DNA of 59,254 nucleotides, counting the filler, from Jimgerdemannia flammicorona (lineage: Eukaryota): the NCBI GenBank assembly GCA_003990765.1. It is 3 parts of 3 records of this genome, joined end to end, with 100 filler letters (N's around TTAATTAATTAA, not from the genome) between each part and the next. Parts side by side here need not be neighbours in the genome. Positions count along the whole stretch, not along the records: positions 39,575 to 59,254 come from RBNJ01001875.1; 2 more parts are not named here. One strand, 5' to 3'. The translations under genes were made by a program, and so were the position numbers. The notes beneath the pieces are model-generated. The model did no database searches, was not told the DNA's origin, and saw only the letters and a program-made list of their open reading frames with translations. Each line of letters starts with the position of its first letter. Within the stretch, counting starts at the first letter, position 1. Shown piece after piece: positions 7,996 through 57,789 of the stretch.

Positions 7996-10711
7996 ATCTA
8001 CAGACAAAGAGATAGATATAGTACTTAGTGCCTTACTGAGTCAGAATGCAGTCATATAGTATAAGTGTGATCTGACATATGTATCAAGAGATTATCTGAC
8101 TGCTGAGTCAGTTCACAGTTATATTATATAAGACTAATCTAACTATACTATACCTGCTAAGCTATTTATAGATTAAATACTGTTTGATGATATTACTATT
8201 GATGACATCATCTCTAGCAAAGTCTGAGCAGTTTTTTGACTTCTGATATTATCAGTTTTAAAGGTGTCATTACCTCTATCTCTTGTAAAATTAAGGCTGT
8301 CCTTGGTGGTAGTGGTTGTATAAGGATAACAGGTCTTAGTTCTTTTTTTTTTTAGGCTACTGGTGTATTTATAAGGACTGGCCATCCTTGTCTAAGGTGA
8401 GGGCTTCCAATATTGCAGCTGGGAGTTCAAACCTTTCAGAAATGATATTTTCTGTAATCTAAGGTAATTTCTATTAGTAATATCTGTCATGTGGATGGGC
8501 TTGAGATTGGTTTTAATAATGTCAGCTTTCTTGAGTTCAGATGAAGTATCTGTCATTCTCCAATAGAGGTGATATAGATAGAGTAAACAGAATTGTTCAA
8601 ATGTATTTTACTTCTACTAAGTAATGAGATCTTTATATAGTTGCAGTATCTCTTAGTCTTAAGTTAATAAGTACAGTTCATAAACCTTTAGTAGATAAGA
8701 GAGGTTCTTCTCATCTTGGTTTGAGTTTGGTACTTTTGGTTTCTTTTTATAATAGTATAGTATACCAAACTAGTTATAGAGTTAGTCTGGTTATAGTACT
8801 TCTTCTGGTATTCTTGTATCTTGGCAGTAGATTCTCATGCTTACTAGTATATTTTGTATAACTAGGTGATCTCTTCAGTAACTTGTTTTGTAGTCTTATA
8901 TGTGATTTCTGAATTGGTTCTGAGAATGACATGTAATTTTGGTGGCTTAGAGGTTATGTGCTTACAACTCTCCCCTTCTTAGCTTTCAATGTCCTTGTCA
9001 AGGTCTTCTAATTTGATCTAGTATTGTTATACTATTTGGATGGTTCTTGTGGCTGTGTTTGTTGAGGATTTGTTCAACTTTGTATTCTTCTTAGTTATTA
9101 ATAATGATAGGTGCAGGTGGTTCTATGGTTCAGTTCAGAAATATGTCTTAGAATTTCTGGAGTAGGGGTCTAACATGGCTGTCAACTTTGGAAAAATCTT
9201 CTTCAGAGTTCTCAGGTTCTCCTTTGGATGAGCAGATGGAGATAGCAAAGAGAGGGTATTTCTTGGCCAATTTCTTGAGCTGTAGCTTGTTGATTTGAGT
9301 GATCTTTGGTCCAGAGTCACTAGAGCTGAGTGGGTCCTTTTTACCTTACAGTTTGAAGTTGTGATGTCCTTTCTTAATAGTCAGAGAATGGTTTATCCAA
9401 TAAATCATAGGGTTCTCTTATTTTAACCATAGAGTTCCAAGGATGATTTCATTATCAGGAAGTAGTACTATCTGGAGGGTAACATATACTTGGTAGTTAC
9501 CAATTTGGAAGGATAAGTGTAGACTTCCTTACTAATGATATGTGAGGTTCCATCAGCTTGAGTTTATTATACCAGAGATGTCAGGACTTTGAGTCTATTG
9601 GCTATTTCTTCATTGATGAAGTTGTCTGAGGCACCACTGTCTATTATAATCTTGACAGATGCTTGGTTGACAAAAGCTTGTAGTATAAGCAGTTTATCTA
9701 ATCTGATATTAGTGATTTTGATTGTAAGAGCTTTTCTTCTATTGGTTCTTCTTTGGGCCAGTTTGTTGATACAAAAGAAGCAATTGTTGATTATTTGGAA
9801 AGAGTACATTCTAATATCAAGGAGATATTAGTTACTTGGTATATATCTATATTCAATTTTCTTATAAAATTGTTCTTCTTTATTTATGGTAAGTTGGGCT
9901 GGGGCCTTGTTTAATGAGCCAAATCCTTTAGATCCTCAGATAGTGGGTAGTAGCTCAGAGACTTCTTTAATGGTCAAGGTTGATTCAATTTTCTCAAATA
10001 GGATCTGTATAATACAGAAACCAATAGAGATCTTGAAGGGTGTCCAACTATGGTTTCAGATAAGAATGATGATTTCACCTATGCAATCTTTGTCAATGAC
10101 TCCTCCTTCTACTGAGAGTTCTTTCAGTGCTAGGCTGTTACAACAGTATATTCTTCCAACATATCCTTCAGAGATTTAGATGCTGATTCCTATATAGACT
10201 TACTTGATTTCTCAGTTAGAGACTATAGCTTCTTTGGCTATATATAGGTCATATCCAGCTACCTTTTGACTTCCTTTGACTAGGGCCTTGGCAGTTTGCC
10301 TTAACTTGACAAAGTTTAGTATTCTGGTATTCAGGTTATTGAGGTGGTGCAGAGTAGTAACAGTAGCTCATATTGCTGTTTGGGGTTTTTGGTTAGGGCA
10401 GACACTGGTCATATATCCTGTCTTTCAGCAATAGAAGTATGCTCTGCTTCTTTGAAGTTCATTTCTTTCTTCTTTGGTGAGTTTCTTAAAGGTACTTGGC
10501 TGGGTGGGTTTATGATTTCTGGGTGTCTATGAGGTGGATGTGGAGGGAGCTCAGGATGCTTCATACTTGGGTTCTTCTTTCTTGATCTAAGTCTTTTTCT
10601 TATTGCTGAATTGTCTTCAGGGCAGAATTGGTCCAGCTGTTAGGATTCACTTGACCATAGTCTTGATTCTGGCCTGGCACTATTATTGGTAGTCACAACC
10701 AACTGGATATC
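7996..10711 (-). mobile_element. Gypsy family B, internally deleted copy: gag zinc knuckle - dUTPase - protease - (no RT/RH/IN) - PPT - LTR
   Basis: Decayed CCHC (AYFYC*KTGYMTSVCP ~10400-10445); protease IIDSGASDNFI ~9620-9650; PPT AAGAAGGGGAGAGT then LTR start TGTAAG at 8966, matching 45949-45970; 7996-8230 matches LTR-B at 47290-47470 and 48110-48340. Confidence 0.8.
9910..10315 (-). pseudogene. dUTPase domain between gag zinc knuckle and protease
   Basis: FVKLRQTAKALVKGSQKVAGYDLY...EGYVGRI...VEGGVIDKDCIGEI...TI*GSKGFGS: trimeric dUTPase motifs 1, 3 and 5 are clear. Confidence 0.88.
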
Positions 10712-10712
10712 C

Positions 10713-19418: not shown

Positions 19419-19424
19419 AGACAG

Positions 19425-22677: not shown

Positions 22678-22711
<34 letters not shown>

Positions 22712-24078: not shown

Positions 24079-25210
24079 TGTAACATGCCTGGCTCAATTG
24101 AGGCAAATTACAAGGTTGGGGGTTGATATAGTTTGGCTTGAGCCCTCAGTTATTTTGTCAAAAAGCAACAAAATGTTCTATAATTCCTGAAGTCCTTGGT
24201 ATTTAGTGGTATAATAGTCAAAGCTGGATATCTGCGAGCGATTCTGGCGATTTCCTTATTGGGATAGTTCTCTGGGTGTAGTGGTGATTTGTGCGTGGGT
24301 GACAGTCTGGCAATTTAGCGGTTTTCTTATGCGATTTCTGCGTGACGATCTCTGTGTAGCGCGGCGATCTCTGTGTAGCGCGACAATCTCCAAAAGTATG
24401 CGATTTCTGGGTGATGGTGCGATTTGGCAGATAACTCGATTTGGGTGGAGATTTACTGGGAATAGAGGATGGCATGGATTCTTCCTGAATCAGCTCACTG
24501 GAAATAATACTGGTGGCGGATTCTTGGCAAGTTACATAAAAGACTGGCTTTGTTTGCATGAATGTATCACTGCGAAGTTGCGTCAAGAGACTGGCTTGTG
24601 GCAAGAATAGCGGACTTTCTGGGAATGTGGGTTTCTTTTCAAAAGGCAGTGAAGTTCTTCCTTGAACTTGGTGGTTTCTTTAGGCTTATCTGGCAAGTGA
24701 ACCAAAACGTAGCAGACTTCTCTTGAAAATGGCAGCTTATTCCTTAAGTGGCGAATTACTCAAATGGTGATGAAGTTCTTTCTTGAACTTGGCGGCAAAT
24801 CTTCAGGCTTATCTGGCAAGCAAACCAAGGCTTTGTATTAGAAAGTGGACTGGAGTGGAAATAAGGGGACCAATGTGAGGCTTCTTTGGTTTGTACTTCA
24901 ATTCAGACTGAGGTTTATTCACTCTTGTCTCAGAGGTATTTTATATAGTTGTGGTTACTACTGGTTACTATATTGCTAACTATAGATTGCTAACTATGGC
25001 AAGTGTTCCTTGAGGGCACAGTGTACCTTGAGGGTACAGTATACCTTGAGGGTATGGTATATCTTGAGGGTACAGGTAAACATACTGTTTCTGGTATCTC
25101 TGGCTAAATATACAGGTTGGCACAGTAAAGCAGTCTTGGTTGCTTAGTGCAATAGATATAGTATGTGGCTAATTTATGATTTCAGTGGTACAATTCTGTT
25201 GCTCATTACA
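24079..25210 (-). repeat. 3' LTR of Gypsy-A (1132 bp)
   Basis: TGTAA...TTACA termini; TATATAAA (~24945) and AATAAA (~24915) on the minus strand; short tandem repeats at 25008-25075. Confidence 0.88.
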
Positions 25211-25254
25211 TTAGCCCCCACTAAAGAATGGTCTGTCCTCAGACAATCCTTTAG

Positions 25255-25700
25255 TCATCATTCCAATGTGCATAAGCATCTTCAGCATCAATATCTGAAC
25301 TAGTATCTTCATTTGGATCAGAGTCACTCTATTTGATAGATTCTTCTTATTCCTCTGGAAACAGGATCTCAACATAGTTGATAATGCTTCAGTAGGTAGT
25401 AGGGTTCATACTTTGAATGTCATTCAGGAGAAATTATATCTGTGTCAATGCTGGGATATTTTGTTTGTAGATTGTATATAATCTGTCTGCAGCAGTGGTA
25501 TTTTTCTGATGTAGGTCAGGTCTGCTGCTGAGAGGTTCTGCAACTATTCTCCAATTGCATAGTAGGCCTACAGCTGGTGGACTTATAGTAAATATCTGAC
25601 CAAGGTGAGATTCTCTTAATGGGTCTGGATTTGCTAAAGGGGGTTTCTATTGGCTTATTGGAATTGTGGAAGGAAAACTGAGAGTGATTGGAATGATCTC
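25255..25700 (-). pseudogene. Accessory ORF-X homolog between integrase and PPT
   Basis: VHQL*AYYAIGE*LQ...TAADRLYTIY...IINYVEILF plus acidic tail; resembles 46260-46824. Confidence 0.55.
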
Positions 25701-28609
25701 AGAACAAGGGTCTGGAGGTACTGATCAATTGTCTGGTTCATGATGAGAGAGATATATCTTGAGGCAGTTGATGTATACTGGTGTCCTGAGGATCTGTTCA
25801 TCTATGCTTCTTAAATAGATGCTGGTTCCTCTGATGTTGTATACAAGATAGAGTCCTTCCCATTTGGGCTCCAGTTTGGTAGCAAAATTTGTTTCAATTA
25901 TACTTCTCCAAACTAGTACTTGATCTCCAATATTGATCTCCTGATCCTTCTACTTCTGGTCATAGGACTTCTTTTGTCTTTCTTGGACTTTAATAATCTG
26001 AACTCAGGTCTGATTATGTAACTGTTTTGCCTTCTTGAGAAGGTCTCTGAGATTCTCATGGTCAGTAGTTCTGGTTCTCTTGGCAAACATCATTTCAAAT
26101 GACTTTTGTTTAGTAGAGGCAGCAGGGGTGTTCTGAATTTCCCATAAGATCTCAGATAAGCAGAGGTTTCAGTTGATAGAATTGACTCAGATATATCCTT
26201 TCTTGATAGTCTGGTTCATTCTTTCTATCATGCCATTGGTCTGAGAGTAGTATGATATAGTCTGTTTGAGGTGGATCTTGTGAATTTGGGCATAACTTAC
26301 AATTATGTTGTTGATGAATTCTGTGTCTCAGTCAGAGATGAGTTCTTCTGGGGGTCTATATCAAGTGTGAGTCTATAGAGAAGGCCTACAATGGTTAAGG
26401 CATCTGTGATTTCCATTGGGAAAGCCTTGGGCTACTTGGTCAGATATTCTACAAATATAAAAATATACTTGTTTCTTCTTAGTGTAACTGGTAGGGGTCC
26501 AATTATATCTACTCCCCATCTCTGAAAGATGTTGTCTGATAGTATAATTGATTGCAGTGGTGCTTAGTAGTTTTTCCTTCCTTGGTATTTCTGGTAGGTA
26601 TCACATTTCTTAAGTATATTCTGGACTTGTATTCTGAGATTGGGCCAATGTTGGTGTATTGTTTGTAACTTTTATTCTATGTTTGCTTGTCCTTGGTAGG
26701 CTTTCTGGTGTTCTTTTTAGATGAGATCTTCTTGTGCCTTGATGGTTTGAGAAGCTTCCTTTAGAGTGTAGTTCCTTGGGACACCCTTCTTCTGATTTAT
26801 TGGGACTGGTGGGAAAGTATATCAATATTGTTGTGAGCTTTCCCTGCTTTGTGGATGATGGTGATTTTGTAATTCTGAAGGATAAGGATCCAGCAGACCA
26901 GGATTCTGGTAGGTTTCTTATAGTTAAATAGCCATTTGAGGGCCACATGGTCTGTGATCAGGGTGAACCTTTTTCTGATGAGGTAATGCTTGAACAGAAT
27001 GACCACCCATATGACTGCAAGGTATTTCAGTTTGGTGCTACCATAATTCATCTGCTGCTGATTGGTAGCTTGGCTTATATAAGCTATTATATAGTATTGT
27101 TGGTCAGATACTTCTTGGGCTAGAACTGCTCCTAGGCCATCTTTGAAAGTATCTATATATAAGTTGAATGGCTTCTGTAGATTGGGGTGCACAAGGATTG
27201 GTGCTGTAGTCATGCAGTTCTTGAGTTCTTTAAAGGCTTTATCTTGTGATTTTGTCCATTTGAATGGTACTTCTTTTTTAAGAAAGACTTGGATTGGGGT
27301 AGCAATTTGGGCAAAGTCCTTAATAAACCTTCTGTAGTAGGATACTAGCATCAGAAATGATAGTATTTCCTTTGAGGTCTTGGGTACTGATCAATTGTTG
27401 ATCTTTTCAGTTTTCTTTGGGTCTGTATGAGTTCTTTCTTTTGAAATTATGAATCTAAGGAATTTAAGTTTCTGTTTTCCAAAATAGAATTTCTTGGCAT
27501 TGAGTCTCAGGTGATTCTTGTGAGTGAGCTTGAAGAATTTCTCCAGATGGTGCAGGTGTTCTTCAAAATTTGCTGAATAGATGTTGGAATCATCTATGTA
27601 TACAATCAGGCAGTGGTGAATCAAGGGGGCATAAACTGAATTCATCATCCTCTAAAAGGTAGGGAGTGTATTGCAAAGTCCAAAGAGTATTCAGAGGTAT
27701 TCAAACAGTTTTCCTAGAGCAAGAAAGACTGTCTTTTGAATGTCTTTGGGGTCTATGGAGATCTCATGGAATCTTGTAAAAAGGTCTATACTGCTGAAGT
27801 ATCTGATATCTTGTAACTGATCCAAAAGGTCATTGATTCTGGGCAAAGAATAGGCTGACTGAATTGAGTTTTCTGTAGTCTATGCAGAGTCTCCATCCTT
27901 CTTTCTTTGGTACAATAAGTATAGGGCTGGTCCAAGGGCTAGTTGAGGGTCGAATAACTCTATTGTCTAAGAGTTCCTGAATATACTCCTTTTCAAATGT
28001 TTTTAAGTAATAGAGTGTTCTATTGGGTTTCTGCTGGATGGGTGTTGCATTTTCTGTAGTTATGCTGTAGTGATATAATGGGTTGTATGGCAGATTGCTA
28101 TAATCAGTGATGAAGATATCTTGATATTTATAGAGGAGTTCTACTAGTTGTTGCTATTGTTGGGGAATCAATTCTTCTCCAATGTTGATGGAAGGCTTTA
28201 CTGTCTCCTGGGTTACAGAGGGGCCTTTTCTTTCTTCTGGGACCTTTTGCTGTTTCCCAATAAGTTTAGTTCATAAACTTCTCTATGAGTTTGGTTGAGA
28301 AAAGGCACCAGATATCCTATGATGGTTCCTTTTAGCAAGATGATGGTTTCCCAATTTTGATTGATTGCTTAGGAATGTACTGAATTCATCTTATTAGAGA
28401 ATGTGTATCCTTATATATCCAAGTGTGGGATATCTTCATTGGGTTCAAAGAAAAGGTTTCTGTGGTCAGGTGGTGTAAATATTTCGAAGGTGGTTTGTTC
28501 TCCAGGCTCTAGGATGAGATTCTTGTGCAGTTTGACTAGTTGGCAGTATACTTGCTGAAGGACATTCCTCTTGAGATAATTGACTTAAAGGAGATGTACT
28601 TCTTTCTTA

Positions 28610-32799: not shown

Positions 32800-34675
32800 T
32801 CATAGTCACTCTAGGTAGTTTGTGGCAAAAAATACTTTATGATCAGGATCTCAATTACTAGGCAATGATCAGTATTACTATAGCACCAATTACTAGGGAT
32901 AAGCTGGAATATTATTTTCCACATTGTATATATTATTCATTATTCATAATATTATATATCATACTTGATTGATAATGATGTCATTGCTGGGTCATATGAT
33001 TGCTTGTTATCATATATTGCATCTTATCTGTTCACTTATTTATTCTATTACATTCTTCTTATCTTAAAAATCAACATTCTTATTGATTTGGAAATTGAGA
33101 ACTAGGGGAAAAAAAGGTGGAGAATCCTCCTCAGTGTTGTTGTCTTCTTCTCTAGTGACTGGGGGGGTAGTTGCTGATGGCTTGATGTCCAGGATAGAGA
33201 AGTCAATAAGGTCTACAAATGGTTCTTAAACTGGTATGGACATTGGGGTAGAGGTTCTCTATCTAATGTGATTGGGACTATCCAAGTAGGGTTTGATCCT
33301 CATACCTAGGGATATCTATTTGGATGGACAGTCCTTCAAAGAGATCAGAGAGACCTTAGAGCTATTGATCTGGGTTATCATTCAGGAGGGGGCTCTAGTG
33401 GGATTCAATGTCAGTAGACTTGAGGGTAATTTAGGAGTTAGCTTCTTGGGCTATCTTGATCTCTAGCTCATCAACCTCAGGGAATGAGAGGTTCTGGAAG
33501 TCCTTCAGTTATATATAGTTGAGGTTGGAGATTGTAAAGAGTACATGGTATATAATTTGATGGATCTTCTTGGTAGTCTTTGCTTATACCTATCCAGGTG
33601 AGTCCAGTCTGAGACCTGGTCAGTGGGTAGGCCATTTGTATATTGAAGAAGTTGATGGCCAATTTTATATTCATATCAGATTTCTTGGTAGCTGGTAGCA
33701 AGATAGGCCCTTTCAATAAGTTCATGATAGTCAAGAACATACTGTCCTAGGTCCTGGCTGAAGAGGTTAAGGGTCTCAGAGAGATGGTTCCTTCCTTAAA
33801 TAGCAATCTGGATGTATTCAAAAAGACAGTCAACCTGACTTAAGAGGGGCTGGCTATAGTGGGTAGTTTGGTAGTAAGTAGCAGACATTCTTGTCTTGCC
33901 TTTTCTTTGGAGAGAGAAAGGGGAATAAGGGTTGCAATATATTCTTGCCTTAGATATTTATACTTATTCACCTATCTGGTGTAACTATAATTCAATCACA
34001 CTTTCTTGCAGAATATGTGACCTATTGCTGTAGAGCATATGCTAGTTATATGAGAAAATTCTGATTTCAATAATATTATCACATTGTACAGGATTGACAA
34101 ATCTTGCTCCTCTTTTTTTTTTTAACTTATTGGTGTATTTGTGAGAACTGGCCATTCTTATCTAGGGAAAGGGCTCTCATTGTTATAGCTGGGGGTTCAA
34201 ACCTCTCAGATATAGTATTTCTTATAATCTGAGGTAATTTTGAGTAACAATATCTATTATATAGATGAACTTAGATGGGTTTCAACATCATTAGCTTTCC
34301 TAAGTTCTATATGAAGCATCTGTCATTATTTAGCAAAGATGATACAGATAGTATAAAGTAGAATTATTCAAATGTATTTTATTATATCTTACTGAGTTGT
34401 TCTTTGCCTGAGTATCTTTCTTATTGATTAAATAGTATTCCTTTTTCTGTTAATATTTGGTATTATATATTCCAGATAAATATATGGTATCTTCTTTCTT
34501 TGATATGTGCTCTAAGTTTTAGAGCTGCAGTTCTTTTCTCTACTGGGGGGTAAGTGTTTCCATGTAGTTCTGAAGGGCTTTGCATATATTCTCTAGAGCT
34601 TCTTCTTTTTCCCAGATAGTATTATGGGTGGGGTAACCCTTCCACTTGATGAGAAAAAACCACTTGACTGTTTTG
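32800..34675 (-). mobile_element. Chromovirus family D 3' end: chromodomain - ORF-Y - ORF-X - PPT - LTR start
   Basis: WFFLIKWKGYPTHNTIWEKEEALEN (34540-34670); 34130-34380 matches 8380-8620; ORF-X at 33100-33900; TTTTAAGATAAGAAGAA then TGTAAT at 33052. Confidence 0.65.
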
Positions 34676-39474: not shown

Positions 39475-39574
39475 NNNNNNNNNNNNNNNNNNNNNNNNNN
39501 NNNNNNNNNNNNNNNNNNTTAATTAATTAANNNNNNNNNNNNNNNNNNNNNNNNNNNNNNNNNNNNNNNNNNNN
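39475..39574. other. Artificial contig spacer
   Basis: N44-TTAATTAATTAA-N44. Confidence 0.97.
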
Positions 39575-42500
39575 ACCCCTTCTCTGTGAAAGACTACTTT
39601 GTCAAACACAATCCCCACCCTCCCACCACTCTGCTCACATATGTATCTTCATCACTAAACCTCGACGTCTGCCTCCCTGAGGTCCCCAACCCACCCACTA
39701 TCCGGTCAGCAGATCCCCCACCAGCTCCTCCCACCTTAACACCTTCTCATGTAACCCCAACCGCTGCCCCTCCTCAAACACGAAAAGCCAATGTCCTGCC
39801 AGTCCCACCTATACTGCTAACACCCATCCCACAGTGAGCCAACTGTCCCCAACCCCACCCACAAGCCGAGATTTGAAGTCCTCCCAGCGACCCCCCTCCC
39901 CCACCCACCTATGCCCAATACCCAATCTATCCCCTATCTCAGCCCAAAATTCCCCCAAGACCTCACACTCCCCCAGCCAATGTTCCGGCGTCTGTACATA
40001 ACCCCCAGCTTGCCCAACATCATAACACTCCTCGCAGTCAAATTGTCCACCCTCTACTAGATGCCCTGAGCGGAAATTCAGCATGACATTCCTCCGCAAC
40101 ATTCTCCACCATACCACCCAGTACTTGGGAGGGAGCCACCTTCGGACCTCAGCACTCCAAGACCAGATGTCCGCCCAGTCCCACTCCTCTCCGATTCCAA
40201 CCGCCTGCCAGCTACTTGGCCAAAGGTCCCGGCCAAGCCCCTGCTGACACTCCACCCCCTCCCCAATATCGAACACAGCTAGGGGAGTACCCCCCAGGAG
40301 CAGACTATCCCAACGCCACATATTAGGCCCCCACGCCACCTCCCCCTCATTACCCTGCCAGCACAGACCAATTCGGTGTGCTCCCTCAGCCACTCCCCAC
40401 CAAAACCTCTTGAACTGCAGTCACCGAACTCCATTCAGCCCCACCAAAGAGAGCAGATCCCCAGAGGACCCTTGAGGGGAGGTTCGCATCTCCCATACCT
40501 TCTGCAGCAGAGGCACCCAACCTCTGCCCTACAATTCCACAGCTCTCCTCAATCACCAGACTCTCAAGCAGTGCAGCCTCTTAGAGAAATCCACCAGGCC
40601 CAGACCTCCCCTGACTACCGGTCTCGCCAGAGTATCCCAACTGACCTGGGACCTCCTCTCTGCCCAAATCCAGTCCCTAGCCACCTTCATTAGCTTCTTC
40701 ACCACCCACGCTGGGAAGTCTAGGTGATATGCTACATACCACAGCTTTGGGAACCAATATACATTCAGGATTGACACCTGCCCTGCTAGAGAGATATGGC
40801 GGCCTCCCCATCCTCAAAGGGCCTCCCCCCAACTGTTCACCCTGCCCTCCCACCACACTTGTGGTAAGACAGAACCATATATAGAGAGGAAGATGCCCAG
40901 ATACTGCACCACCTCACCAGTAGGGACAATTGTTCCAATGACGTCCCCACCCACTAACCCATTCCCTAGCACCATTGTCTCACACTTATACCAGTTGAGT
41001 TTTGCCCCCGAATGAGCCTCATACCATTCTACAGTCCCCTGAAGTGCCTCTACATCCACCACAGACCCAAGTCCAACCACCATATCATCAGTAAAGGCCC
41101 CCACCTTCCACACTATACCATATATAGAGAGCCCCGCTATCTTCTGGCGAATCCTATCCAACAATGGTTCCAGTGAAAGGGCATAGAGAATCGGGGATCC
41201 TTCCCAAAGAAAAAGCCCTCCCGCGATGACCATTACATGTCAGAGCTGCCCAACTACTTTCCAGCAGACTCAACATAGAGGCCCAAAATGTTGGGGGAAC
41301 ACCAATGCAGTCCAACACCTTTCCCAGCCATACCCACCGTACATGGTCATAGGCCTTCTCCTGGTCCAGAAAGACCAACCTTCCATCCAGCCCACAGGCC
41401 CGGGCCCCCTCAATGACCCCATGAACCCATGTAGTCCCATCTCGGATTAGCCTACCCCCAACAAAGCCCCTCTGCTCTTCTCTCAGCACCTGTTGGGCAA
41501 CCTTCTGCAGCCTCGTGACAATCACCTTAGTCATCATCTTCCTGTCCATATCCAGTAGTATGATCAGCCTCCAGTTCTTCCAGTCTTCCCTTCTTCCCTT
41601 ATCTTTGTACAGTAGGGCCACCAGCCCCAAATCCTGCTCTTCAACCCACATACCACTCTGAAGGACATGGTCACAAAGACCAGCCATCTCGCCCAACACT
41701 CTGGGGACATTTACCATCTTCTTCCAGAAGTCCCACGGCAATCCATCCTCTCCTGGCACTGTCCCAAGCTTAGTTGCTGCCAGGACACCCTGGATCTCCT
41801 CTCCCTGGACTGGCAAGATCAAGTCCCCCAGTCCATCAACCTGCGGTGGTTCCCACTCCTCTAGTGAATCCGCAATCTCTGCCCCATCCACACCCCCTTC
41901 TCCCTCACTCTACAAACCCTGCCATCTCTCCTTAAGACCCCCAGGATTTGTTGCGTGCCATGAACCATGTCCCCATCAGCATCCAGGACTCCATCCCACC
42001 GATGGCATACCCGCCTAGCTTTGAGAAGTCTTGATAAGTACCTAGTAGGCCGCTCACCCTCCTCAAGCCCCTGCCACCACAGCCTAGCAGCCATGCCCTG
42101 CATATATATCTCCTCCTCTTCCCTCAGCACCTGTTGTAGTTCCACTACCTCCAATTTCGCCCTCTCTATCCTCCAATCCTCCACCCCCACAATAGTGAGC
42201 AAGTCTGCCCAATCTACTTGTAGTCTCCTCAGCCTGCTGGAAGCACACCTCATGCACCTCCTTCTCAGCCTCCCAGCCTCCCTACCGGCCTCTTCCCAAT
42301 AAACCCTTGCAGCCTCTTTCAATCGCATCCAATGGACAGCCACAGGCAAACCCTCATGCTTCCAAGTACAAACTTTTGCCTGAATGTTCTTCACCCAAAG
42401 TTCCCACAGCCCCTTCTCAGCCAGCAGAGAGGAGTTAAGGCACCAATGTCTGGGTCCATCTCCATTCCCCCCAAACTGCCCCCACCCCAATAGTCCCCAG

Positions 42501-45322
42501 TGATCAAACCATGGGCACCACTCCACTTTCAATGCCTTCCAAACATCCGAACCCCAGCACTCTGCTGTCAGAATCCAGTCAATCCTTGTGCCCAGGCCAT
42601 TCACCCAATGCGTGTAGACCCTGGTGTCACCCCACCTCGTTCTGCCCATATCCCCCAAGGAGCTCAACATCTCCACCTCCTCCCACGCATCCAGACCTCC
42701 ACTTCTACCCCTGGCACTCCTCCCTCCATCAGTTCTGTCCAGATGCTGATCCTGAACATATTAAAGTCCCCACCAAGAACATCTACCCCTTCCTCCAAGA
42801 GAGTATCCTCTTCCAGCAATCCCCTAATCCAAGCAATCCGCTCACCCCTAGCCGCAGGGCAGTAGCAAGAGCCCACCTTCACCGATTCTCAACCTGGCCG
42901 ATGCCAATCTCCCCAGACCAAGCAATCACCCCAGCTCCTGATTCCCCCCAAGTCTCCTCTGCCTTTCCTCACCAGAATTGCTACCTTTCCAAACCATGCA
43001 GCAGCCCCCCCCCACTCCTTAGTCCACTCCGCCCAATCGTCCTCATCCTCACATCAAACATCCTGTAATAAAAAGAGATCAGCCTCCAATCCCTTGAGCC
43101 AAGTAAAAATGTTCCTATGCCGCCCAGATCCCCTTAGCCCATTCACATTCAAGGAAAAAATGTTGGTTGTACTGTTCATAAAGAATAATGATATATAACA
43201 AAGCCCATCCTCTATAAGTCGGCATCCTGCCTCTCCTGCACCAGGTCCAAGTTAAGTTCAGCAGCCAGTTCCCTCTCCCCAGCTTCCCGTACCTCCAACT
43301 CCCCCAGAAGTTCGACCATCGCCCCATCCTCATGCTCCTCAAAATCCTCGCGATACTCCAGACATGCCTCCTGCCAGAGCTGTAGACCCCGATGCTCTGC
43401 CCAACAGTAGGCTGCCCACTCAGCAGCGACTACCCCCAGTTCTGCCTTCCTCACCTCATCCACCTCATATCCCTCCTCCTCTATCAAAATCGCCAGAATC
43501 TCCACCTTCAGTGCCTCCACCATTCCATCCCCATGCAGGATCCTTGCCCAATGCTCCTCAGGCATCACCCGCAGGTCTACCTCCCCCAATGCTTCTGCTG
43601 CAAGGTTATCCATCACCTTGCATACCCACAACAAGTTCCCCACCTCTTTCCCTCCCGGAGTCCCCAGCTGCCCTGCATCCAACATCGTAGTATCAGCTCC
43701 TACACTAGCAGCCTCATCCCACTCCTCCTCAGGGACATCCACCAGCTCATCCTTGCCAACTGCCACCACTTGACCCCCTTGAGCCACATCAGGGACCCCA
43801 AAGCACACCTGCTGGGCCCCCTGCATCCGTGTATCCTCCGGCCTCTCTTGCATCCCCACTGGGCCCCTCCTGATAAGTGGGAGGGGAGTGGCATCCAACT
43901 CCGGCTCCCACACTTCAAAGGTACCATCAGCAAATGGGTCCTTGACCAGCCCCTTCCCGGCTCCTGCCTCCTTCGCTTCCACCTCCTCTCCTCCTTTACC
44001 AGCCCAGACACTGGCCTCAGCACCCCCAGACTCCTCAGCTTCACTCGACTGCTTCTTCCCCCCACCTGTCATATCCACCAACAGCTCCTTCTGCCTCTTG
44101 TATCTCTGGATCCACTTCCACTGCTTCTTATCCATATGGATACGCCTCCCACCCACAACCTCCAGATGTGTCGATTCCTCAAACAGTTTCCAGGCCTTCG
44201 CCCTCCTCTCTACAGCACCACCCAACTCCTCCAGCACCTCCAACAAGTCCTCCTCCTCCTCTTCGCTCCCCTTCACCCTCGACACCTTGTAGATGACAGC
44301 CCCCCACATCAGTACCGAGGGCCAGTCACTCGGCTTCCCTGTGGCCTCTTTCCCTGCCAACCGAATCCTAACATCGACGTCGCCTGTCCTGATAGTCGTC
44401 CCCTCCCACAATTGAAATCCAATGTCCACCATGTCGCCATACTCAACCATCACCTCCTCCATCCTCCTCCTAGTCTCCTCCTTAGTCACCGTGGGCACCC
44501 CCCTCACCAGAAGCTGCACAACCCTGGGGTCCCACCTCAAGCACCTAACCATGGGGACCACTACCTCCCCAACCACCACTCCTGTCTTCATGGCCTTGTC
44601 CAGTAGGCCTGCCTCCTCAAAGCCCACCTCAACTCCCTCCATGCCCTTCAAGAACTTCACCAAGGCCGTACCAGCCACCTGCTTCGAGATAAGCCCCAGG
44701 ACCATCCTCACCATCACCGCCAAGCCCCGGAAGCACAAGGTAGCCACGAACTCCGAGATTAACTTCTTGAGCAACAGGGCCACTGTCAGTCCCGTTACAC
44801 CATCAGCCAGGTCCCCCTTCCACATCAGGAGCCCCTGCCCCCCCTGGCCATCAACTGTCACATCTCTTTTTTTTTCCAGATTCGCCATCACGCCACCATC
44901 AGCAGTCCCACCACTACTCCCAGCCATCCCTCCACTTCCCCCACCTCCCCCCAGTGAAGGTCCAGCTCCCCCAGCGGTTCCATCCTTCTGCTTCCCCTTC
45001 CCTCCCGCCGGTCCACCACGAGTGCCCAATGGCCAGCCCCCACCCCTCAGCATGTCTGCAAAGCTCCTCCCCTGCTTCTCTCCAGCCCTCCCACCAGTGC
45101 CACTTCCACTGCCAGAGCCACCCTGCCCACTCAAGCCACCGAAGGACCCCATCCCCAATCCATACCCTCTCCCGACAGTCTGCCAGTCGAAGGCCCCAGG
45201 TCCACCCGACCTAGTACGCACGTCGGCTTGCTTACTGGTTGACATTGTCTTAGTATCTTTTCTCCAATAAATGCTGCGAAAGTGTGTTGAAAAGTGTGTG
45301 TAACGTGAATTGTAGTGGAGAA
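39575..45322 (-). mobile_element. L1-clade LINE copy d, near full length and relatively young, inserted in Gypsy-B integrase
   Basis: 5' end TTTTCTCCACTACAATTCACG; open ORF1; ORF2 from ATG at 43179 with stops and frameshifts, and a deletion removing GVPQGDPL (~41195); C-terminal CEEC...EHWLGEC. Confidence 0.93.
43212..45245 (-). CDS. LINE ORF1 protein, 677 aa (Gly-rich N-terminus, RRM-like middle, acidic C-terminal domain)
   Basis: Uninterrupted ORF ~30 bp upstream of ORF2; homologous to ORF1 fragments of copies a, b and c. Confidence 0.85.
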   Translation of the reverse strand: MSTSKQADVRTRSGGPGAFDWQTVGRGYGLGMGSFGGLSGQGGSGSGSGTGGRAGEKQGRSFADMLRGGGWPLGTRGGPAGGKGKQKDGTAGGAGPSLGGGGGSGGMAGSSGGTADGGVMANLEKKRDVTVDGQGGQGLLMWKGDLADGVTGLTVALLLKKLISEFVATLCFRGLAVMVRMVLGLISKQVAGTALVKFLKGMEGVEVGFEEAGLLDKAMKTGVVVGEVVVPMVRCLRWDPRVVQLLVRGVPTVTKEETRRRMEEVMVEYGDMVDIGFQLWEGTTIRTGDVDVRIRLAGKEATGKPSDWPSVLMWGAVIYKVSRVKGSEEEEEDLLEVLEELGGAVERRAKAWKLFEESTHLEVVGGRRIHMDKKQWKWIQRYKRQKELLVDMTGGGKKQSSEAEESGGAEASVWAGKGGEEVEAKEAGAGKGLVKDPFADGTFEVWEPELDATPLPLIRRGPVGMQERPEDTRMQGAQQVCFGVPDVAQGGQVVAVGKDELVDVPEEEWDEAASVGADTTMLDAGQLGTPGGKEVGNLLWVCKVMDNLAAEALGEVDLRVMPEEHWARILHGDGMVEALKVEILAILIEEEGYEVDEVRKAELGVVAAEWAAYCWAEHRGLQLWQEACLEYREDFEEHEDGAMVELLGELEVREAGERELAAELNLDLVQERQDADL

Positions 45323-46259
45323 AAAGTCCTACTAGACATCAGAGGATACCGAGTTGACAACCTCAAGCACAGACTATCTACAAAGCTGAACAGCAAGTTC
45401 ATTGGACCATTTGAAGTCATCACACAAGTCTCTCTAACCTCCTACAAACTGGCACTACCAGATACCATTAAGATTCACCCAGTCTTTAATGTCCAATGTC
45501 TCAAGCGATATAATGAGAATGATGACAAGCTATTTCCAAACCGGACCACCAAACCACCTGTACCTGTCATTATTAATGACTAAGAAGAGTATGAAGTTGA
45601 ATAAATCCTCAACAAACATGGCAACAAGAACCATCCTGAGTACCTTGTCAAATGGAAAGATTACCCGATCCATGATGCAATCTGGGAACCCAAGACCAAT
45701 CTCCAGAATGCTACCGACCTAGTTTAGGGATATGATTCCTTGAATAACTAGAACCAGATACTCCGTACCTATCTATACATACTATATATTATCCTCCTGA
45801 ACATTATAATTATCGCAATCCAAACCAAGAACTCAGCAAAATAAGACAAGAATACTAACCCTCTGGAGAAATGGCAAACTAAAAGCAAGCCTATTCTCTC
45901 TGTACCACTGAACAAAATTAGAAAGCCCCGATAAGGATGTCGAAAGCTAAAAAGAGGAGAGTTGTAAGTGCACAACCTCCAAGCCACCGAAATTACACGT
46001 CACCCTCTGAACAAGCCACTGAAATCACACGCGACCTCCGAACAAATCTGGAAATCACCTGCTTGATCATGAAGCTGAGTCAAACCAAAGTCACAGCATA
46101 CAAAGCTGAGTCAATATGAAGTCACAGAACACAAGATTTACACAAACGGAATCTTACCAATTAGGATCAAATGTATATATACTGTGCACTGAGACGTATC
46201 GAATCAGAGAACCAAAACAAATAAACAACCACAACTTCCAAACATACAAACATAACCAC

Positions 46260-46824
46260 CAAGATCTACAACTGTATCTGTGCTAACATTTGGAATGCCA
46301 TTGTCAACCGAGCCACACCCCCTCTGTCCCTCATGAATATCCATAGCCTGGCACCCCTCTACTTCGTGGAAGCCTGATGGAATGCTCTGAACATACTTAG
46401 CAAGGTCCACCGAATCAGACAAATCTCAAGCTACTATCAGATCGGCCGCCTCCTGGAAGACATGGTCAAACACCACCATGATACAGACATTACCCAGATG
46501 TCTCAACACCAGAAGCTCATCGCCTGCAAATATCAAGAACTCTTCTATGAGTATAGCACTATTATTCTCTGCCTCTGAGTTACTACCAGCAAAATGGTTG
46601 CTACTCTGTCCTATGGCCAAATCGATGATATGATACAAGAACTCAACCAGAAGTACCTCGAGTATGTTGAAACTACAGATAGAACCTTCCCACACCCCAA
46701 TGATCATATCCTACAAATGCCCCAAGTTGGATATACTATGAAGGACATCTACGATATAATCCACTTTGATGAAGACGAAGCAGAAGACAATGATCCCTCT
46801 GACACCAATATGACCTCTAGTTAA
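46260..46824 (+). pseudogene. Accessory ORF-X inside LTR-B
   Basis: KVHRIRQISSYYQIGRLLE...LIACKYQELF...IILCL*VTTSKMVATLSYGQIDDMIQEL; both internal stops are TGA, consistent with CGA deamination. Confidence 0.7.
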
Positions 46825-46863
46825 GGATCTCTGCCAACCCTGATTACTCCGCCAACCTTACTG

Positions 46864-47349
46864 ATGAACTTACAACAGTTTATAACTGCATATGAGACTT
46901 ATTGGGATAATGACCACTGGTATAAATACCAACCTGCATTTACCCCCGATTACTTCAACTACAATGAAGAGACTGGAGAACACAACCTATACCTCCAGAC
47001 AACTCTCGAGATTGAACTAACCACTCCACCACCTGAGTATGAGCGACATGAACTACAGCCACCAGCTTACTACAATCCTGCAACTCATAGTGCTGTAACC
47101 TATAGAAGGTACACAGACAGTGAATCCGATGAAAGTGAAAACGATGCACCCCTGCTTCACCCACCAACACCTTATCCAGCATATGAGACTGATGATGCCA
47201 TCTTGTGGGATGGAGATGAAGTTCCAATGTATTATTACCTCAGTGAACAAGGAGAAGTAATCCGCAAACCATTATTCCTAGATGACTACTTCATCAGAGA
47301 TGATACAATCAATAGTAATGTCATTGAAGACTACCCAGACAGCACCTAA
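46864..47349 (+). CDS. Accessory ORF-Y inside LTR-B, 161 aa, acidic Tyr/Pro-rich, function unknown
   Basis: Open ORF; C-terminus IRDDTINSNVI recurs at ~48110 and as ARDDVINSNII at ~8190 (-). Confidence 0.65.
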   Translation: MNLQQFITAYETYWDNDHWYKYQPAFTPDYFNYNEETGEHNLYLQTTLEIELTTPPPEYERHELQPPAYYNPATHSAVTYRRYTDSESDESENDAPLLHPPTPYPAYETDDAILWDGDEVPMYYYLSEQGEVIRKPLFLDDYFIRDDTINSNVIEDYPDST

Positions 47350-48838
47350 ACCCATAAATAGCCTAGCAGTCATAGTATAGTTAGATTAGCATTATACTAC
47401 ATGACTGTATTCTGACTCAGCAAAGCACTTAGTGCTATATCCATATCTAGCATAGTCCAGATAGCCCCTCATTAGTATAAATACCCCCTCCCGCAGACCT
47501 CAGAATCTCAGACTCGAACACACAAGAACATTCCTGAACACTTTCCCACAATATCCCTTTACATAACTACTCCTAGTATAGTAATATCATGAATAGCGAA
47601 TAAACCTATTTAATAACCCACAAACTACTCTTAAGTAAATCCACTTTCTATTAGGTCCTACTCCTAACCCCGTCACGAAATTTCCTAATTGGGTATTGTC
47701 TGCAGTGATATGCCAATTCAACTAAGCTGGTCTTAGTTTCTTAAACTTCCTGAAATACAGAAAATCCTGAACATCCAGAACTAGTCCAAAAAAGGACTTT
47801 GGTTGAGATGTCAACCCGATCTTGAAATCAATAAGTATAGAGGATGTACTCCATACAAAATTGATCTTGACCATAAGAAAACGGTCTTCCAGAATATCCA
47901 GAATATCCAGAAAACCTTTCCAGAACTACGTAATGGTTACTCTAAAAAGTAACCCTCTTATACCATCCTTCATCCACCAATACCTTATCCAGCCTATGAG
48001 ACAGATGATGCTATCCTGTGGGACAGAGATGAAGTTCCAATATATTATTACCTCAGCGAACAAGGAGAAGTAATCCACGAACTACTCTTCCTAGACAACT
48101 ACTTCATCAGAGATAATACAATCAATAGTGATGTCATCGAGGACTACTCAGATAGTGCCTAAACCTATAAATAACCTAGCAGTCATAGTATAGTTAGATT
48201 AGCCTTGTACAATATAACTGTGAACTGACTCAGTAGTCAGATAATCCCTTGATATGTCAGATCACACTTGTACTATGTGACTGCATTCTGACTCAGCAAG
48301 GCACTTAGTGCTATATCCATATCTAACATAGTACAGATAGCCTCTCACTAGTATAAATACCCCCTCCCCCAGACCTCAGAATCTCAGACTCGAACACACA
48401 AGAATATTCCTGAATACTTCTCCACAATATCCCTTTACACAACTACTCCTAGTATAGCAATATCATGAATAGCAAATAAACCTATTCAATAACCTACAAA
48501 TCACTCTTAAGTAAATCTGCTCTCTGTTAGGTCTCACTCCTAACCCCATCGCGAAATTTCCTAATTGGGTATTGTCTGCAGCGATACACCAATTCAACTA
48601 AGCTGGTCTTAGTTTCTTGAACTTTCTGAAATATGGAAAATCCTGAATATTCAGAACTAGTCTGAAAAAGAACTTTGGTTGAGATGTTAACCCGATCTTG
48701 AAATCAATAAGCATAGAGGATATACTCTATATGAAATTGATCTTGACCATAAGAAAATAGTCTTCCAAAATATCCAGAACTTCCAGAAAACCTTTCCAGA
48801 ACTATGTAATAGTTACTCTAAAAAGCAACCCTCTTACA

Positions 48839-50845
48839 CAAAGTCTTCAATGAAGATCAGGATTGACTCTTCAGTAGTATATCCATAAAATATAGGGGGA
48901 TGTATTTCTATCTTATCTTGAATTCTTGTAGGGGTAACTCTTATAGTCAGAGTAGTTATTGTGGAGGTTGTTCATTTTTCAACTTGAAAGTGAGAGATTC
49001 ATCTTGAATCACCAGCCAATGGGCACCAAGTTGTCACATAGTAGTTGCTGAGTCCTTCAAATATACCAGATTTTCTTCAAGGTATATCTCTTAGACTAAC
49101 TCAAGTTTGTTATAAGCAAGTTCTTATTGGAGTATCTTCCCAAGGTCTTATAGTCCTCAAACTTCTTATCTTTAACTATCTTGTTATCTCTTAGATTGCT
49201 TGTAAGGAAGTGTATATATTGTACTAAGTTAACTGACTTTATTTTAGAGGAAATAAGAAGAGTATTTATACAAAATATAATTCAATAGTTGCTAAGATAT
49301 AAAGCTAAATATAAATTCCAATAACTAAAATAAAATGCCAGAATAGAAAAAACTGTAAAGTTCCAGAGTTAGCACTGATGATTATATAGGTTCAGGATGC
49401 TGATATAATTCAGTATTACATCAGAATACCAGTGCTGGCATTATTCAGTGTTATATCAGAATGCCAGTGCTGGCATTATTTAGTGTTATATCAAAATACC
49501 AGTACTAGTATTATTTAGTATAACTAAGAGACTTAGAGCAGAATGTTCAAGATCATAGGGGCATCATCATCAGAGGTCAGAATATCTTCGAAGGAGATGA
49601 GGTCTATGAATTTGTTGTCATCACATAGATTATATGTTTCATATACTTTGTACATGTCACACATCTTGCATATGTTATGTGGGATGATATCATTGCTGAT
49701 GATGTTATCACATTTAGCAGCAGAGAAATTGGGGGCTCTCTAATCTATGAGGTTCTCTTCTACAAAATAGGGGACAAATGTGGGATCTTGGGGGAGTCTA
49801 ATCTAGATACTTAGACCTTGGAATACTGAGATCAATCCTTGCAGAAATTGGTCTGGGTTATCCTGAAGGATGAGATACCAGAAGTCTTCTACTTTGTCAC
49901 TGTCAAGGGTGATAGTGGACTAGGCTTCTGTAGTCACCCTGGCTTCTAGTGCATTGATACAGTAGACTGACAGATCTCTGAAGTCTGAGACTCTAACATA
50001 CTTCAAGTTGAGGATTAACTATGGTGCATGTCTAAAGATCTGATGAATCTTCTTAGCTGTCCTTATTTCATATATATCTATGAGAGTGGCATCTTGTAAC
50101 TCTTGAGTGCTGGTCTATGGGAACTTTCAGTAGGGGAGATTTCCTATTTTGTACTCCTGCTATATTTGGAGGCATTTAGTAGTAATAGTGATCCTTATTT
50201 CCATTTTACAGTGATAGAGGATATAGTGATAAGGGTCAGCAGTACCTAGATTGACACTAGGAGTCCTTCTTGTGTAGGTCCTCATAGCTCTTCTGATGTC
50301 TTAGAACATCCTTTCTTTGACTGAGGTACTTTGGTAGTTCTTTGATCTTGATGTTTAGCAAGCAATAGGCATTTTGTTTGTAGTAAGTCTTTGAGCTATT
50401 TTGGGATTAGTGGGTCTTATTGGTTGCTGCTACTGTGGTTCCTTGATCCTTCTTTTATATTCCTCAAGATACTATACTGTAGTTACAATGACTCACAGTT
50501 GGTCATCATTGCTCATCTCATATGCCATATGATCTTCTTGTGCTCTAATCTGGTAGCTTGTAAGTAAAGGCTATCTCCTGTACTGATGTCATCATTTTGG
50601 GGTCACTATTACAATAGTAACTATATTTAGTAATTATATTTAGCAATTATATTTATAATAAATATACTTATAGTAAATCTTACTTACAGACTATATTTAA
50701 CATCTATCATTTGTATTATAGTCATAGAAGCAAAAGGAGCAATGAGGCTCTATTGTTTTGTGAATCTAACTTCTTTATTTTTCTATTATATATTAGAAAT
50801 TAGGCATCCTCAACTGTAATTCAACAATAGTGTTAAAATGTGATA
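48839..50845 (-). mobile_element. Gypsy family C 5' part: LTR containing ORF-X, PBS-like site, gag start
   Basis: ...GTGACA (49032) ACT TGGTGCCCATTGG; gag-like HPPIFYGYTTEESILIFIEDF at ~48845-48905; ORF-X ~49520-50600; 35-bp tandem repeats 49396-49520; outer LTR boundary uncertain. Confidence 0.6.
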
Positions 50846-52248: not shown

Positions 52249-53986
52249 TCAAGCCCCCTCCATCGCCACCTCCCTCCCCTCCACTTCAACCCCTCTACCA
52301 CCTTCACCCTCACCCAACAGCATCTCGGCAGCCTTATCAAACCCTACCCAGCACACGAGCGGGGTTGTCCCAAGCACGTACTGTGTGCGTCGGTTGTAGA
52401 GCAGCAGACCGTCGGGTCGGGTCGGGTAGCCGCATTGGGCCGGGTCGACAATCAGCGAGCGGAGCTGGTCGCGGTGCGCGTCAAAGGCCATTAGCGGGCG
52501 GAACTTGTAGAAGGAGTTGGCGGCCGTCGGGCGGTCCAGTTCGGAGAATTTGGCGCTGAGCCAGTAGAAGCTGGTGACGGAAGGGGAGATGTTGGAAAAT
52601 GCCGATTTTCCCGGAGACAGGGATTAAAAGAATGCATGAAGAAAATAAAAGCACATACCGGAACTCTGTCTCACAGTCGTACACGGGGTGTCCCTTCCAG
52701 CACATCATGTCGAGCACGTAGTAGGTCAGGTGCACCGGATCGAATACGCAGTCGAGGATGCAGTAGTCAGCGGAGCGGTTGCCACGGTAATCATGCGAAC
52801 CTGCGGGGAGGACTGAGGAGAAGGTGTTGAATATACGGCCTGTGTGAAGGGAGACGGAGTGGAGTGTTAGACTTAGATGCTAGAAGAAGCGTCATTATGT
52901 GTGGATGGCGAATGAAGGTATGTGACTTACCGTTGCGCAGTCGGGCTATGGTCTTGCCTGTGTTCGTGGGATATGGAAGCCGTGGAGATTAGATTTTCAA
53001 TACGCTGCACGCTACCTTCCCAACTGCTTTTCACAACCCCCCATGACAATCACAATGGATGAATTGAAGGATTACCGTTCGCGGAGGTCACAAGACACCT
53101 CTTCCCCACGGGGCACATGACCACGAACCAGTTCTCGTCCAGGTCGCTGGGCACCTCGGTCATCCATTCGGCATACATCACCTGGTTTCTATATGCATCG
53201 AGAGGCGCGAAGAAATTTGTCGCGCAATTGTCAGTCAACACTATTGTGAAATAAAGACAAAAGCAACTTGAATGGCAATTAAGAATCCTTGGACTCACGC
53301 GTAAGGGCTCTTCTTTTTCCGCTTCTCGCCGCCCCTAAACCTTCCCTTGCTTTTCAGCTTCTTGGCCGCCAGCCGATCCCCCTCATCAACACCATCTTCA
53401 CTTTCTTTGTCGTCCTCATCCTCAAACCTACGCTTCCCGAAATTGCCCTGAACAGGCTCTGGCTCTCCCTCTACTTCCTCCTCCTCCTCCTCCTCCTCTT
53501 CCTCCTCTTCTTCATCGGGGACAGGTTCGGTAGCTTTGAAGAGCGCAATCCGGCGGGCATGGTCCGTGAGGCTCTTACGACTCTAGAGGCGACGGGGGGA
53601 AGTCGGATCAGAGTCTATGAACGAATCGAAAAGGAGAAATAACATAGCCACGAGAGGTGACCAACCTCCTTCTGCCTCTCCAACGCTCGCTGGCGGCGGC
53701 TCTCTTGGCTCTCCTCCTTGCTCCTCAAAGAGGGCGTACGCGGAATCTTGAAGTCGCGCTGGCGATGGTAGCCCGCTGACGAGGATGGGCGCAGAGAGGC
53801 GGTCAGCAGTTGGGAGAGGTCATCGACGGTGGTGGCTGTGGCGGCAGTTGATGGGGGCGTTGGAAGCTGTGTTGGGATCTGCTCGGAGCTTTTTGTTGGA
53901 ATCGTGGCTGGGGCTGGCTCAAGGGCTGGGTCGGGGACTGGGTCGGAATTTGAGTTGGGGGCCGGATCGGGGACAGGGGCGGGCAT
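52249..53986 (-). CDS. SNUPN: Snurportin-1 (m3G-cap snRNP import adaptor), about 6 exons
   Basis: [24 protein letters not shown] (IBB-like); [11 protein letters not shown]...[20 protein letters not shown]...[29 protein letters not shown]...[15 protein letters not shown] introns. Confidence 0.93.

Positions 53987-54350: not shown

Positions 54351-57789
<3,439 letters not shown>

Follow-up and report, generated by a model that had tools for sequence, protein, structure and literature searches.

Two putative accessory ORF families and a probable pol tail behind one set of motifs in decayed Gypsy elements of Jimgerdemannia flammicorona

This study concerns a 59,254-nt stretch of the genome of Jimgerdemannia flammicorona (assembly GCA_003990765.1), hereafter the window. 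An initial annotation had read from it one unannotated accessory open reading frame (ORF), ORF-X, shared by four Gypsy elements, A, B, C and D, and placed either before the polypurine tract (PPT) or inside the long terminal repeat (LTR). Our analysis indicates that this finding probably merges three different things: ORF-X itself, carried by C and D; a second ORF, ORF-B, in the LTR of B; and, in A, the C-terminal tail of pol. All the motif strings that had been quoted are present, those of B on the plus strand and those of A, C and D on the minus strand; one family common to all four was not recovered, as no significant profile match was found between A or B and C or D. The core of the proposal stood, namely an unannotated, conserved and non-env-like accessory ORF in the 3' regions of Gypsy elements of the chromovirus type, of which intact relatives were found. 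By its features, ORF-X appears to be a new family of an already known type of additional ORF, and ORF-B a second family, unrelated to it. The coordinates of all features are collected in Table 1.

With regard to C and D, the homology that had been claimed was confirmed (tblastn E 1.6e-18, 46% identity over 92 amino acids). The C motifs share one frame (YKIGN at 50153, KKIHQI at 50054 and DNPDQ at 49862), and those of D need a frameshift, as the frame of KKIHQI (33571) and DNPDQ (33379) is not that of YKIGH (33669). C was read through its stops and compared with 5.8 billion proteins in a word-indexed search, in which 6 of the 96 scored candidates passed (E 1e-95 to 1e-27), with 53-70% identity to C. 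Five of the six relatives are open ORFs of 138-271 amino acids that end in ILNFLL or ILNILL, and the C-terminus of the remaining one, P0007 (161 amino acids), diverges. The profile of a narrow ORF-X alignment (A3) gave six matches at E<=0.001 among 1,835,955,588 protein representatives. Five were ORF-X members; the sixth, a tandem-repeat protein aligned only in 32-residue stretches, was taken as spurious.

Intact ORF-X relatives from public metagenome assemblies comprise the proteins P0002-P0010 and the contig L001. P0008 and P0009, both D-type, and the more distant P0010 are 46, 40 and 29% identical to P0002, respectively, each with an open frame. A scan of metagenome contigs with P0009 yielded one locus, L001 (1535 bp), with an intact 291-codon D-type ORF, and the corresponding scan with A3 yielded relatives in none of its 394 pattern matches. 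ORF-X is represented by an acidic protein of 200-342 amino acids whose frame is open at 29-80% identity in P0002, P0003, P0004, P0008, P0009, P0010, P0013 and the L001 ORF. That frames of 200-342 codons remain open at such divergence argues for selection on the ORF-X protein.

The copies of ORF-X in the window, C and D, are dead. All nine internal stops of C fall at Q, W or R positions of the intact homologs. D is matched by the profile of a broad ORF-X alignment (A5) in two frames, at 33873-33565 (E 2e-20) and 33583-33305 (E 5e-34), and its Smith-Waterman score against P0002 (219) was reached by none of 500 shuffles. Compared with the intact L001 ORF, to which it is 64.6% identical in nucleotides, D shows 123 changes of the types C>T and G>A and 47 of the opposite kind, with a GC content of 0.41 against 0.50 in L001; the C>T and G>A changes hit 43% of CpG, 30% of CpA and 17% of CpT sites. 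The directional decay of positions 33040-33900, within the nest of transposable elements, looks like deamination of the kind seen in repeat-induced point mutation or driven by methylation. The heavy mutation of repeats assumed by the initial annotation was borne out, the window copies being decayed by C>T and G>A changes. Thirteen sequencing runs, mostly of soil metagenomes, share small portions of the stretch (0.05-0.17), and their contigs show many related copies; at positions with A or T in the window, the related contigs of public runs mostly carry G or C.

The position of ORF-X is clearest in the D-type element, where the ORF-X stop directly abuts the PPT and the LTR start, in agreement with the placement before the PPT proposed for D. 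The same layout is present in L001, whose ORF-X TAA is directly followed by GGAGGGAGGA and TTGTAATAAG, that is, by a polypurine tract and the TG start of an LTR, and in both the LTR starts with TGTAAT. Part of the 652-nt spacer between the D-type pol stop and the ORF-X ATG is conserved in L001, and spacer, ORF-X, PPT and TGTAAT are collinear in the two. The D-type chromodomain reached a Smith-Waterman score of 84 against the B chromodomain, a value attained by none of 1000 shuffles. From the sense position between pol and PPT in the D-type and the common layout of L001 and D, ORF-X can be regarded as a sense, ORF3-type additional ORF of a chromovirus lineage. Such a lineage of Ty3/Gypsy elements would carry ORF-X downstream of pol, at the 3' end of the genomic RNA, with the D-type stop abutting the PPT and the 3' LTR.

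Several observations weigh against this reading. A second PPT-like run lies 5' of ORF-X in D (34120-34100) and would place ORF-X inside the LTR; L001 has no such run. Pfam identified no pol domains in the stretch upstream of the D-type chromodomain, which can be attributed to a 4.3-kb repeat inserted there. No D-type LTR pair was found in the window with blastn, purine/pyrimidine words or transition-tolerant alignment, and since the window holds no complete two-LTR element, the LTR limits are drawn from PPT and TG…CA signals and from the breakpoints of related contigs. C shows no pol in the 1.5 kb upstream before host genes begin, and its LTR start was not found: the candidates at 50612, 51186 and 49158 were viewed by eye, and a profile of the PPT block matched only B, a B-like copy and D. 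Finally, no confident fold was obtained for the protein, the AlphaFold2 model of P0002 built from the A3 alignment having a mean predicted local distance difference test score (pLDDT) of 31.6 and a predicted template modelling score of 0.21.

Two other explanations of ORF-X have to be weighed against this evidence. It could belong, as cargo, to a solo LTR or to a distinct non-autonomous LTR element that lies beside chromovirus fragments, a reading to which the missing pol domains upstream of both C and the D-type chromodomain would lend support. We consider this quite improbable, as D-type spacer, ORF-X, PPT and TGTAAT are collinear with L001 as one unit that follows a chromodomain on the same strand, and the PPT/LTR-start block is homologous to that of the B-type chromoviruses, which possess both SH3 and Chromo domains. 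That the ORFs have no product and are frames left open by chance in young repeats is very unlikely: the long frames are open in subfamilies only 29-46% identical in protein, and ORF-B shows 83% positives at 65% identity to its relative P0001. Such a reading can invoke the lack of any Pfam, PDB or confident fold match, including a pLDDT of 0.39 for the ESM model of P0001.

With regard to A, the integrase frame runs from an SH3-like integrase end through AADRLYTIY into an acidic tail and a TAA, after which follow a PPT-like run and TGTAATGAG, with TGTAAT at the LTR start. The A motifs lie 80 nt apart in different frames (YYAIGE at 25564, RLYTIY at 25484), YYAIGE being an out-of-frame reading of the A DNA. 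The end of A lies about 30 nt before the PPT, and A appears to be the C-terminal tail of pol and not ORF-X. In Smith-Waterman comparisons of A with ORF-X proteins the observed score was reached by 179-393 of 500 shuffles, and the ORF-X profile gave no match on the A motifs, the nearest being at 25750-25676 (E 3). A search for longer intact relatives of the A integrase end passed none of 792 candidates. The A tail was also considered as a decayed chromodomain and rejected, as Pfam Chromo gave nothing at E<=1 and comparisons with the chromodomains of the window were equalled by 996 and 22 of 1000 shuffles.

Another retroelement interrupts the B-type element at 45323, and the window lacks the 5' part of the B-type element. 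The sequence at 47957-47962, CTTATA, is a first LTR terminus, and the region therefore comprises one 2.0-kb LTR and the last 0.87 kb of a second copy, in which the TGTAAG/CTTACA terminal inverted repeat is perfect and at whose end, 48836/48838, related contigs depart from the window. A weak indication of the LTR is the summed contig depth in run X1, 497-1845 from 45984 on against 171-431 over the B pol end. ORF-B lies inside the LTR, as had been claimed, with the PPT and TGTAAG on its 5' side and a CTTACA-type terminus on its 3' side. A protein search returned a single relative among 534 candidates, the intact P0001 (247 amino acids), which aligns with ORF-B from the Met to the end, across the stop of the window copy, with 65% identity and 83% positives (E 5e-121). 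The product is an acidic, Tyr- and Pro-rich protein of about 250 amino acids. Judged by these features, ORF-B is a real ORF; its protein probably belongs to a different family from ORF-X.

The interval that had been marked for B, 46260-46824, does overlap this ORF, but about 330 nt of it are stop-containing and it covers only the first 76 codons of a frame that extends to 47349. The motifs quoted for B (RQISSYYQIGRLL from 46417, IACKYQELF from 46522 and IILCL to 46575) lie in the stretch upstream of the ORF-B start, which is not contained in P0001.

The B-type and D-type elements are nevertheless connected. They have a homologous PPT/LTR-start block, so that to speak of four unrelated families was too strong. 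A small blastn search showed the ~45 nt before the B PPT to be homologous (E 0.008) to the last codons, the stop and the PPT of D-type ORF-X, which suggests that the B-type once had ORF-X there. In a B-like copy elsewhere in the window, with pol end, PPT and LTR, most of ORF-B is replaced, midway in the LTR, by 270 nt from the D-type post-pol spacer (8610-8341 corresponding to 34381-34111, 76% identity). From the presence of this spacer, the 3' regions of the B-like and D-type families appear to have recombined or to have become nested. B is best read as a related chromovirus with only ~200 nt between pol and PPT, a stretch that ends in the homolog of the D-type ORF-X end, and the U3 part of its 2-kb LTR carries ORF-B.

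The relation between the B and ORF-X proteins was assessed in several ways. In tblastn against the 59-kb window the best E value of B against C or D was 0.66 (0.66-0.87 for A and B). Smith-Waterman scores of parts of B, or of P0001, against P0002 and P0003 were reached by 44 to 492 of 500 shuffles, and hhalign of the B alignment gave a probability of 0.84% (E 0.066) with A3 and of 0.86% (E 0.064) with A5. The A5 profile, run on 594 six-frame pieces of the window, matched C and D strongly, followed by B at 46258-46641 with E 1.8.

On these data we regard it as doubtful that B, that is, the upstream remnant together with ORF-B, is a very diverged ORF-X, an accessory gene that would stand before the PPT in the D-type and inside the LTR in the B-type. 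The best alignment of the A5 hhalign run is collinear with the motifs of the initial annotation (73 columns, 21% identity: YxIG, AxK..F, LS..D), and B ranks first in the window among the matches of the ORF-X profile other than C and D, with a shuffle p of about 0.03-0.04 (the score was reached in 56 of 2000 shuffles of the upstream part and in 78 of 2000 of the whole). By eye, a hydrophobic-x-D-hydrophobic-I-x-F string followed by an acidic run is present in both proteins, and the D-type spacer in the B-like LTR and the ORF-X-end homology before the B PPT would fit a common origin. However, the A3 run chose a different register at an equal score, and the faint signal is confined to the stretch that had been selected for its likeness; the independent part gives none (395 of 2000 shuffles for P0001, 477 of 2000 for the window ORF-B). 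P0001 is not among the six matches of the profile search of 1,835,955,588 proteins and starts at a Met past the motifs, the upstream part occurs in no database protein (the one match among the 534 candidates lacks it), and the window copy has stops in it at 46375 and 46576. It is extremely improbable that A, B, C and D all form one family. What they have in common are acidic tails and two short words, YxIG and Ax[KR]xxx[IL][FY], and A in the YYAIGE frame scored 50 against the stretch upstream of ORF-B, a value reached by 2 of 500 shuffles. This was one of about 16 tests, and the low value is carried by the YYxIG word on which the annotation had selected. The two A motifs do not share a frame, one standing in the integrase frame that runs into the PPT, and neither the shuffles nor the profile connect A with ORF-X.

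With regard to the character of the proteins, Pfam identified no family in the C-region ORFs and read-through frames, the A tail, the stretch upstream of ORF-B, P0001-P0003 or the L001 ORF. A reading of the ORFs as Gag found no support in Pfam families either, at E<=1 for P0001-P0003 or at E<=0.01 for the L001 ORF, and a profile search of PDB sequences with A5 gave no match at E<=1. The match to an already characterised domain that would have spoken against the proposal was thus not encountered in Pfam or among PDB sequences. Env-like features are likewise missing, as no transmembrane segment was detected in six proteins, whose highest 19-residue Kyte-Doolittle means are 0.59-1.05. The isoelectric points are 4.0-4.9 and the C-terminal third has a net charge of -15 to -21. 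ORF-X comprises 165 N-terminal residues predicted as helical, for which the P0002 model shows helical tendency only (residues 1-165), and a proline- and acid-rich tail with F-x-D-L-I-S-F-E-D and L-N-F-L. The ESM Atlas gave no usable match for P0001; for P0002 its nearest clusters (0.85-0.86) are basidiomycete hypothetical proteins, which serve as a lead only.

Given that the 3' part of the full-length transcript holds both ORF-X and ORF-B, their expression would take place from an internal promoter or through an RNA that is subgenomic or spliced. Their position and composition suggest that the proteins could act as adaptors through their acidic-hydrophobic tails, in transcriptional activation or in the recruitment of host factors, rather than as enzymes or envelope proteins. 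A wider scheme, which we think unlikely, would treat ORF-X and ORF-B as alternative states of a single, rapidly evolving accessory module that belongs to a fungal chromovirus clade and has moved across the PPT boundary. In the D-type the module would be internal; in the B-type only a stub of it would be left before the PPT, and it would have been set up anew inside U3. Recombination of 3' regions would pass it between families, the B-like LTR with its D-type spacer being a footprint of this process. With its basic N-terminus, helical core, acidic, activation-like tail and leucine-rich LNFLL, the product could be a regulator of the Tat/Rev kind that acts on the RNA of the element itself. We know of no such regulator described for an LTR retrotransposon.

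Chromoviruses are Ty3/Gypsy elements whose integrase has a chromodomain at its C-terminus, and in this respect the elements of the window conform to the type: SH3_Tf2-1 and Chromo in the B-type and Chromo in the D-type both lie at the end of pol. To our knowledge, described chromoviruses end pol shortly before the PPT and have no further ORF, whereas here an ORF of 250-290 codons follows pol in the D-type or lies in the LTR in the B-type. Genes in, or overlapping, the U3 of retroviral LTRs are exemplified by sag of mouse mammary tumour virus and nef of human immunodeficiency virus. ORF-B resembles these in position, as it occupies U3, with the PPT on its upstream side and the TATA box on its downstream side; it differs from them in that there is no relation in sequence or fold, that its carrier is a retrotransposon without env, and that it is known here from sequence alone.

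A narrow full-text literature search found no description of an additional ORF in a fungal-type chromovirus. In plant Gypsy elements, sense additional ORFs between pol and the 3' LTR (aORF-3S, or ORF3) are well described, and ORF-X shares with them the strand of gag-pol, the position between pol and the PPT or 3' LTR, the conservation across copies and a function that is mostly obscure (PMC7264820). ORF-X differs in having no transmembrane or env-like features and in that its relatives are only a handful of metagenome ORFs. Its host is probably a fungus and its carrier a chromovirus; the words 'fungi' and 'chromovirus' each have no occurrence in the text of that review (PMC7264820). In LTR retrotransposons of bdelloid rotifers, diverse ORF3s are reported as common to unrelated types of retroelement, and the likeness lies in a third ORF as an exchangeable module and in the presence of dUTPase-bearing Gypsy elements, which the window also contains (PMC5408684). 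The rotifer ORF3s can be recognised as enzymes or env-like proteins and show strong homology, whereas in the window only the related C-type and D-type subfamilies are shown to have an ORF in common.

Additional ORFs of LTR retrotransposons are thus known in plants and animals, few of them with a function. Being conserved, domain-less, acidic and intact in soil metagenome assemblies, ORF-X and ORF-B are candidates for a part in the dealings between chromovirus and host, and the B-type LTR indicates that a U3 can house an ORF of 250 codons. For annotation, the case is a warning against trusting likeness in short motifs when the repeats are decayed and AT-shifted: of the four supposed members, one was a frame artefact and another a non-coding stretch.

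Table 1. Features of the window (positions count along the whole stretch; →, direction of reading on the minus strand)
Feature	Position	Strand	Details
C, decayed ORF-X copy	50372→49533	-	279 codons and stop, 9 internal stops; A5 profile 319 bits, E 7e-97
C element 3' terminus …GTGACA	49032..49037	-	related contigs of two runs diverge left of 49031/49032
D, decayed and frameshifted D-type ORF-X	33888→33064	-	ATG 33888, TAA 33066-33064
D PPT (AGATAAGAAGAA) and LTR start (TGTAATAG, from 33052)	33045..33065	-	directly 3' of ORF-X stop; aligns with L001 TAAGGAGGGAGGATTGTAATAAG
D-type chromodomain	34659-34558	-	Pfam Chromo E 6.4e-5, 23.2 bits (gathering score, 25.1, not reached)
D-type pol stop TAG	34542-34540	-	652 nt upstream of ORF-X ATG
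A, probable pol C-terminal tail	25251..25751	-	integrase frame, acidic end, stop TAA 25253-25251
A PPT-like run (AGTGGGGGCTAA) and LTR start (TGTAATGAGC)	25201..25222	-	~30 nt after TAA
B integrase SH3	45317-45511	+	Pfam SH3_Tf2-1 E 9.5e-16
B chromodomain	45590-45733	+	Pfam Chromo E 1.6e-11
B pol stop TAG	45749-45751	+	
B PPT (AAAAAGAGGAGAG)	45949..45961	+	~200 nt after pol stop; conserved in the B-like copy at 9014-8901
B 3' LTR, ~2.0 kb	45963..47962	+	TGTAAG 45963-45968, CTTATA 47957-47962; TATAAATA at 47476
ORF-B	46594..47349	+	251 codons, one internal stop TAA 46822-46824; inside the LTR, upstream of TATAAATA
B motifs of the initial annotation	46417..46575	+	ORF-B frame, upstream of ATG, cut off by TGA 46576-46578; other TGA 46375-46377
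Second, 5'-truncated LTR copy	47963..48838	+	87-90% identical; CTTACA 48833-48838
B-like copy: pol end, PPT, LTR	8008..9143	-	four blastn blocks: 84%, 78-79%, 76% (E 8e-56) and 87% identity
GC-rich retroelement copies	10854-15726; 16148-19585 (inverted); 39580-45323		
Snurportin-1-like host gene	52252-53992	-	several exons; SPN1_m3Gcap_bd E 6e-21
DEAH-box helicase host gene	54249-57886	+	DEAD, Helicase_C, HA2_C, OB_NTP_bind

Up to ~51.9 kb the window is a nest of decayed retroelements, with intron-containing host genes beyond. Its GC content alternates between 30% and 55%, and comparison of the window with itself shows several repeat families nested in one another. The B-like Gypsy copy (8000-10850) encodes a dUTPase (9915-10292 on the minus strand, Pfam E 1.1e-23) upstream of an aspartic protease, with a degenerate CCHC-like string, seen by eye, 5' of the dUTPase. 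Reverse transcriptase, RNase H and most of the integrase are deleted from it, the chromodomain starting at most ~400 nt after the protease. In its LTR, the D-type spacer is preceded by an SH3-like integrase remnant, seen by eye, for which Pfam made no call. Just downstream of the C ORF-X stop lie three tandem 35-nt units (49408-49496); related contigs skip 68-201 nt here, and the tandem copy number therefore varies between copies.

The retroelement that interrupts the B-type pol, just 5' of its SH3 domain, is the third copy of a GC-rich (~50%) retroelement of ~5.7 kb with a very strong strand GC skew, whose three copies are 64-80% identical. Copies 1 and 3 have an RVT_1 domain on the minus strand, and the element has an upstream ORF of 708 amino acids without a Pfam match; endonuclease, integrase and LTR were not recognised in it. 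The left end of copy 3 is adjoined by a run of TAA-type trinucleotide repeats (~39480-39570), which reads as runs of stops in all three minus-strand frames. A repeat of 1.1-1.2 kb that ends in an A-run occurs at 220-1337 and 30893-32086 and, inverted, at 21310-22711 and 1-88. It sits between a zinc-knuckle-like gag stretch (~32500) and the protease (~30700) of the A element and seems to have been inserted independently. Two copies, 70-72% identical, of an AT-rich element of 4.3-4.9 kb in which Pfam recognised no domain lie at 2216-7141 (plus strand) and 38919-34678 (minus strand), and the latter stops precisely where the D-type chromodomain starts, as though it had been inserted into the integrase. 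Within the 193 nt between the end of the B-type LTR and that of the C element (48839-49031), a PPT-like run followed by TG (ATAGGGGGA TGTATTTC, ~48893-48910) may be the start of a further truncated LTR.

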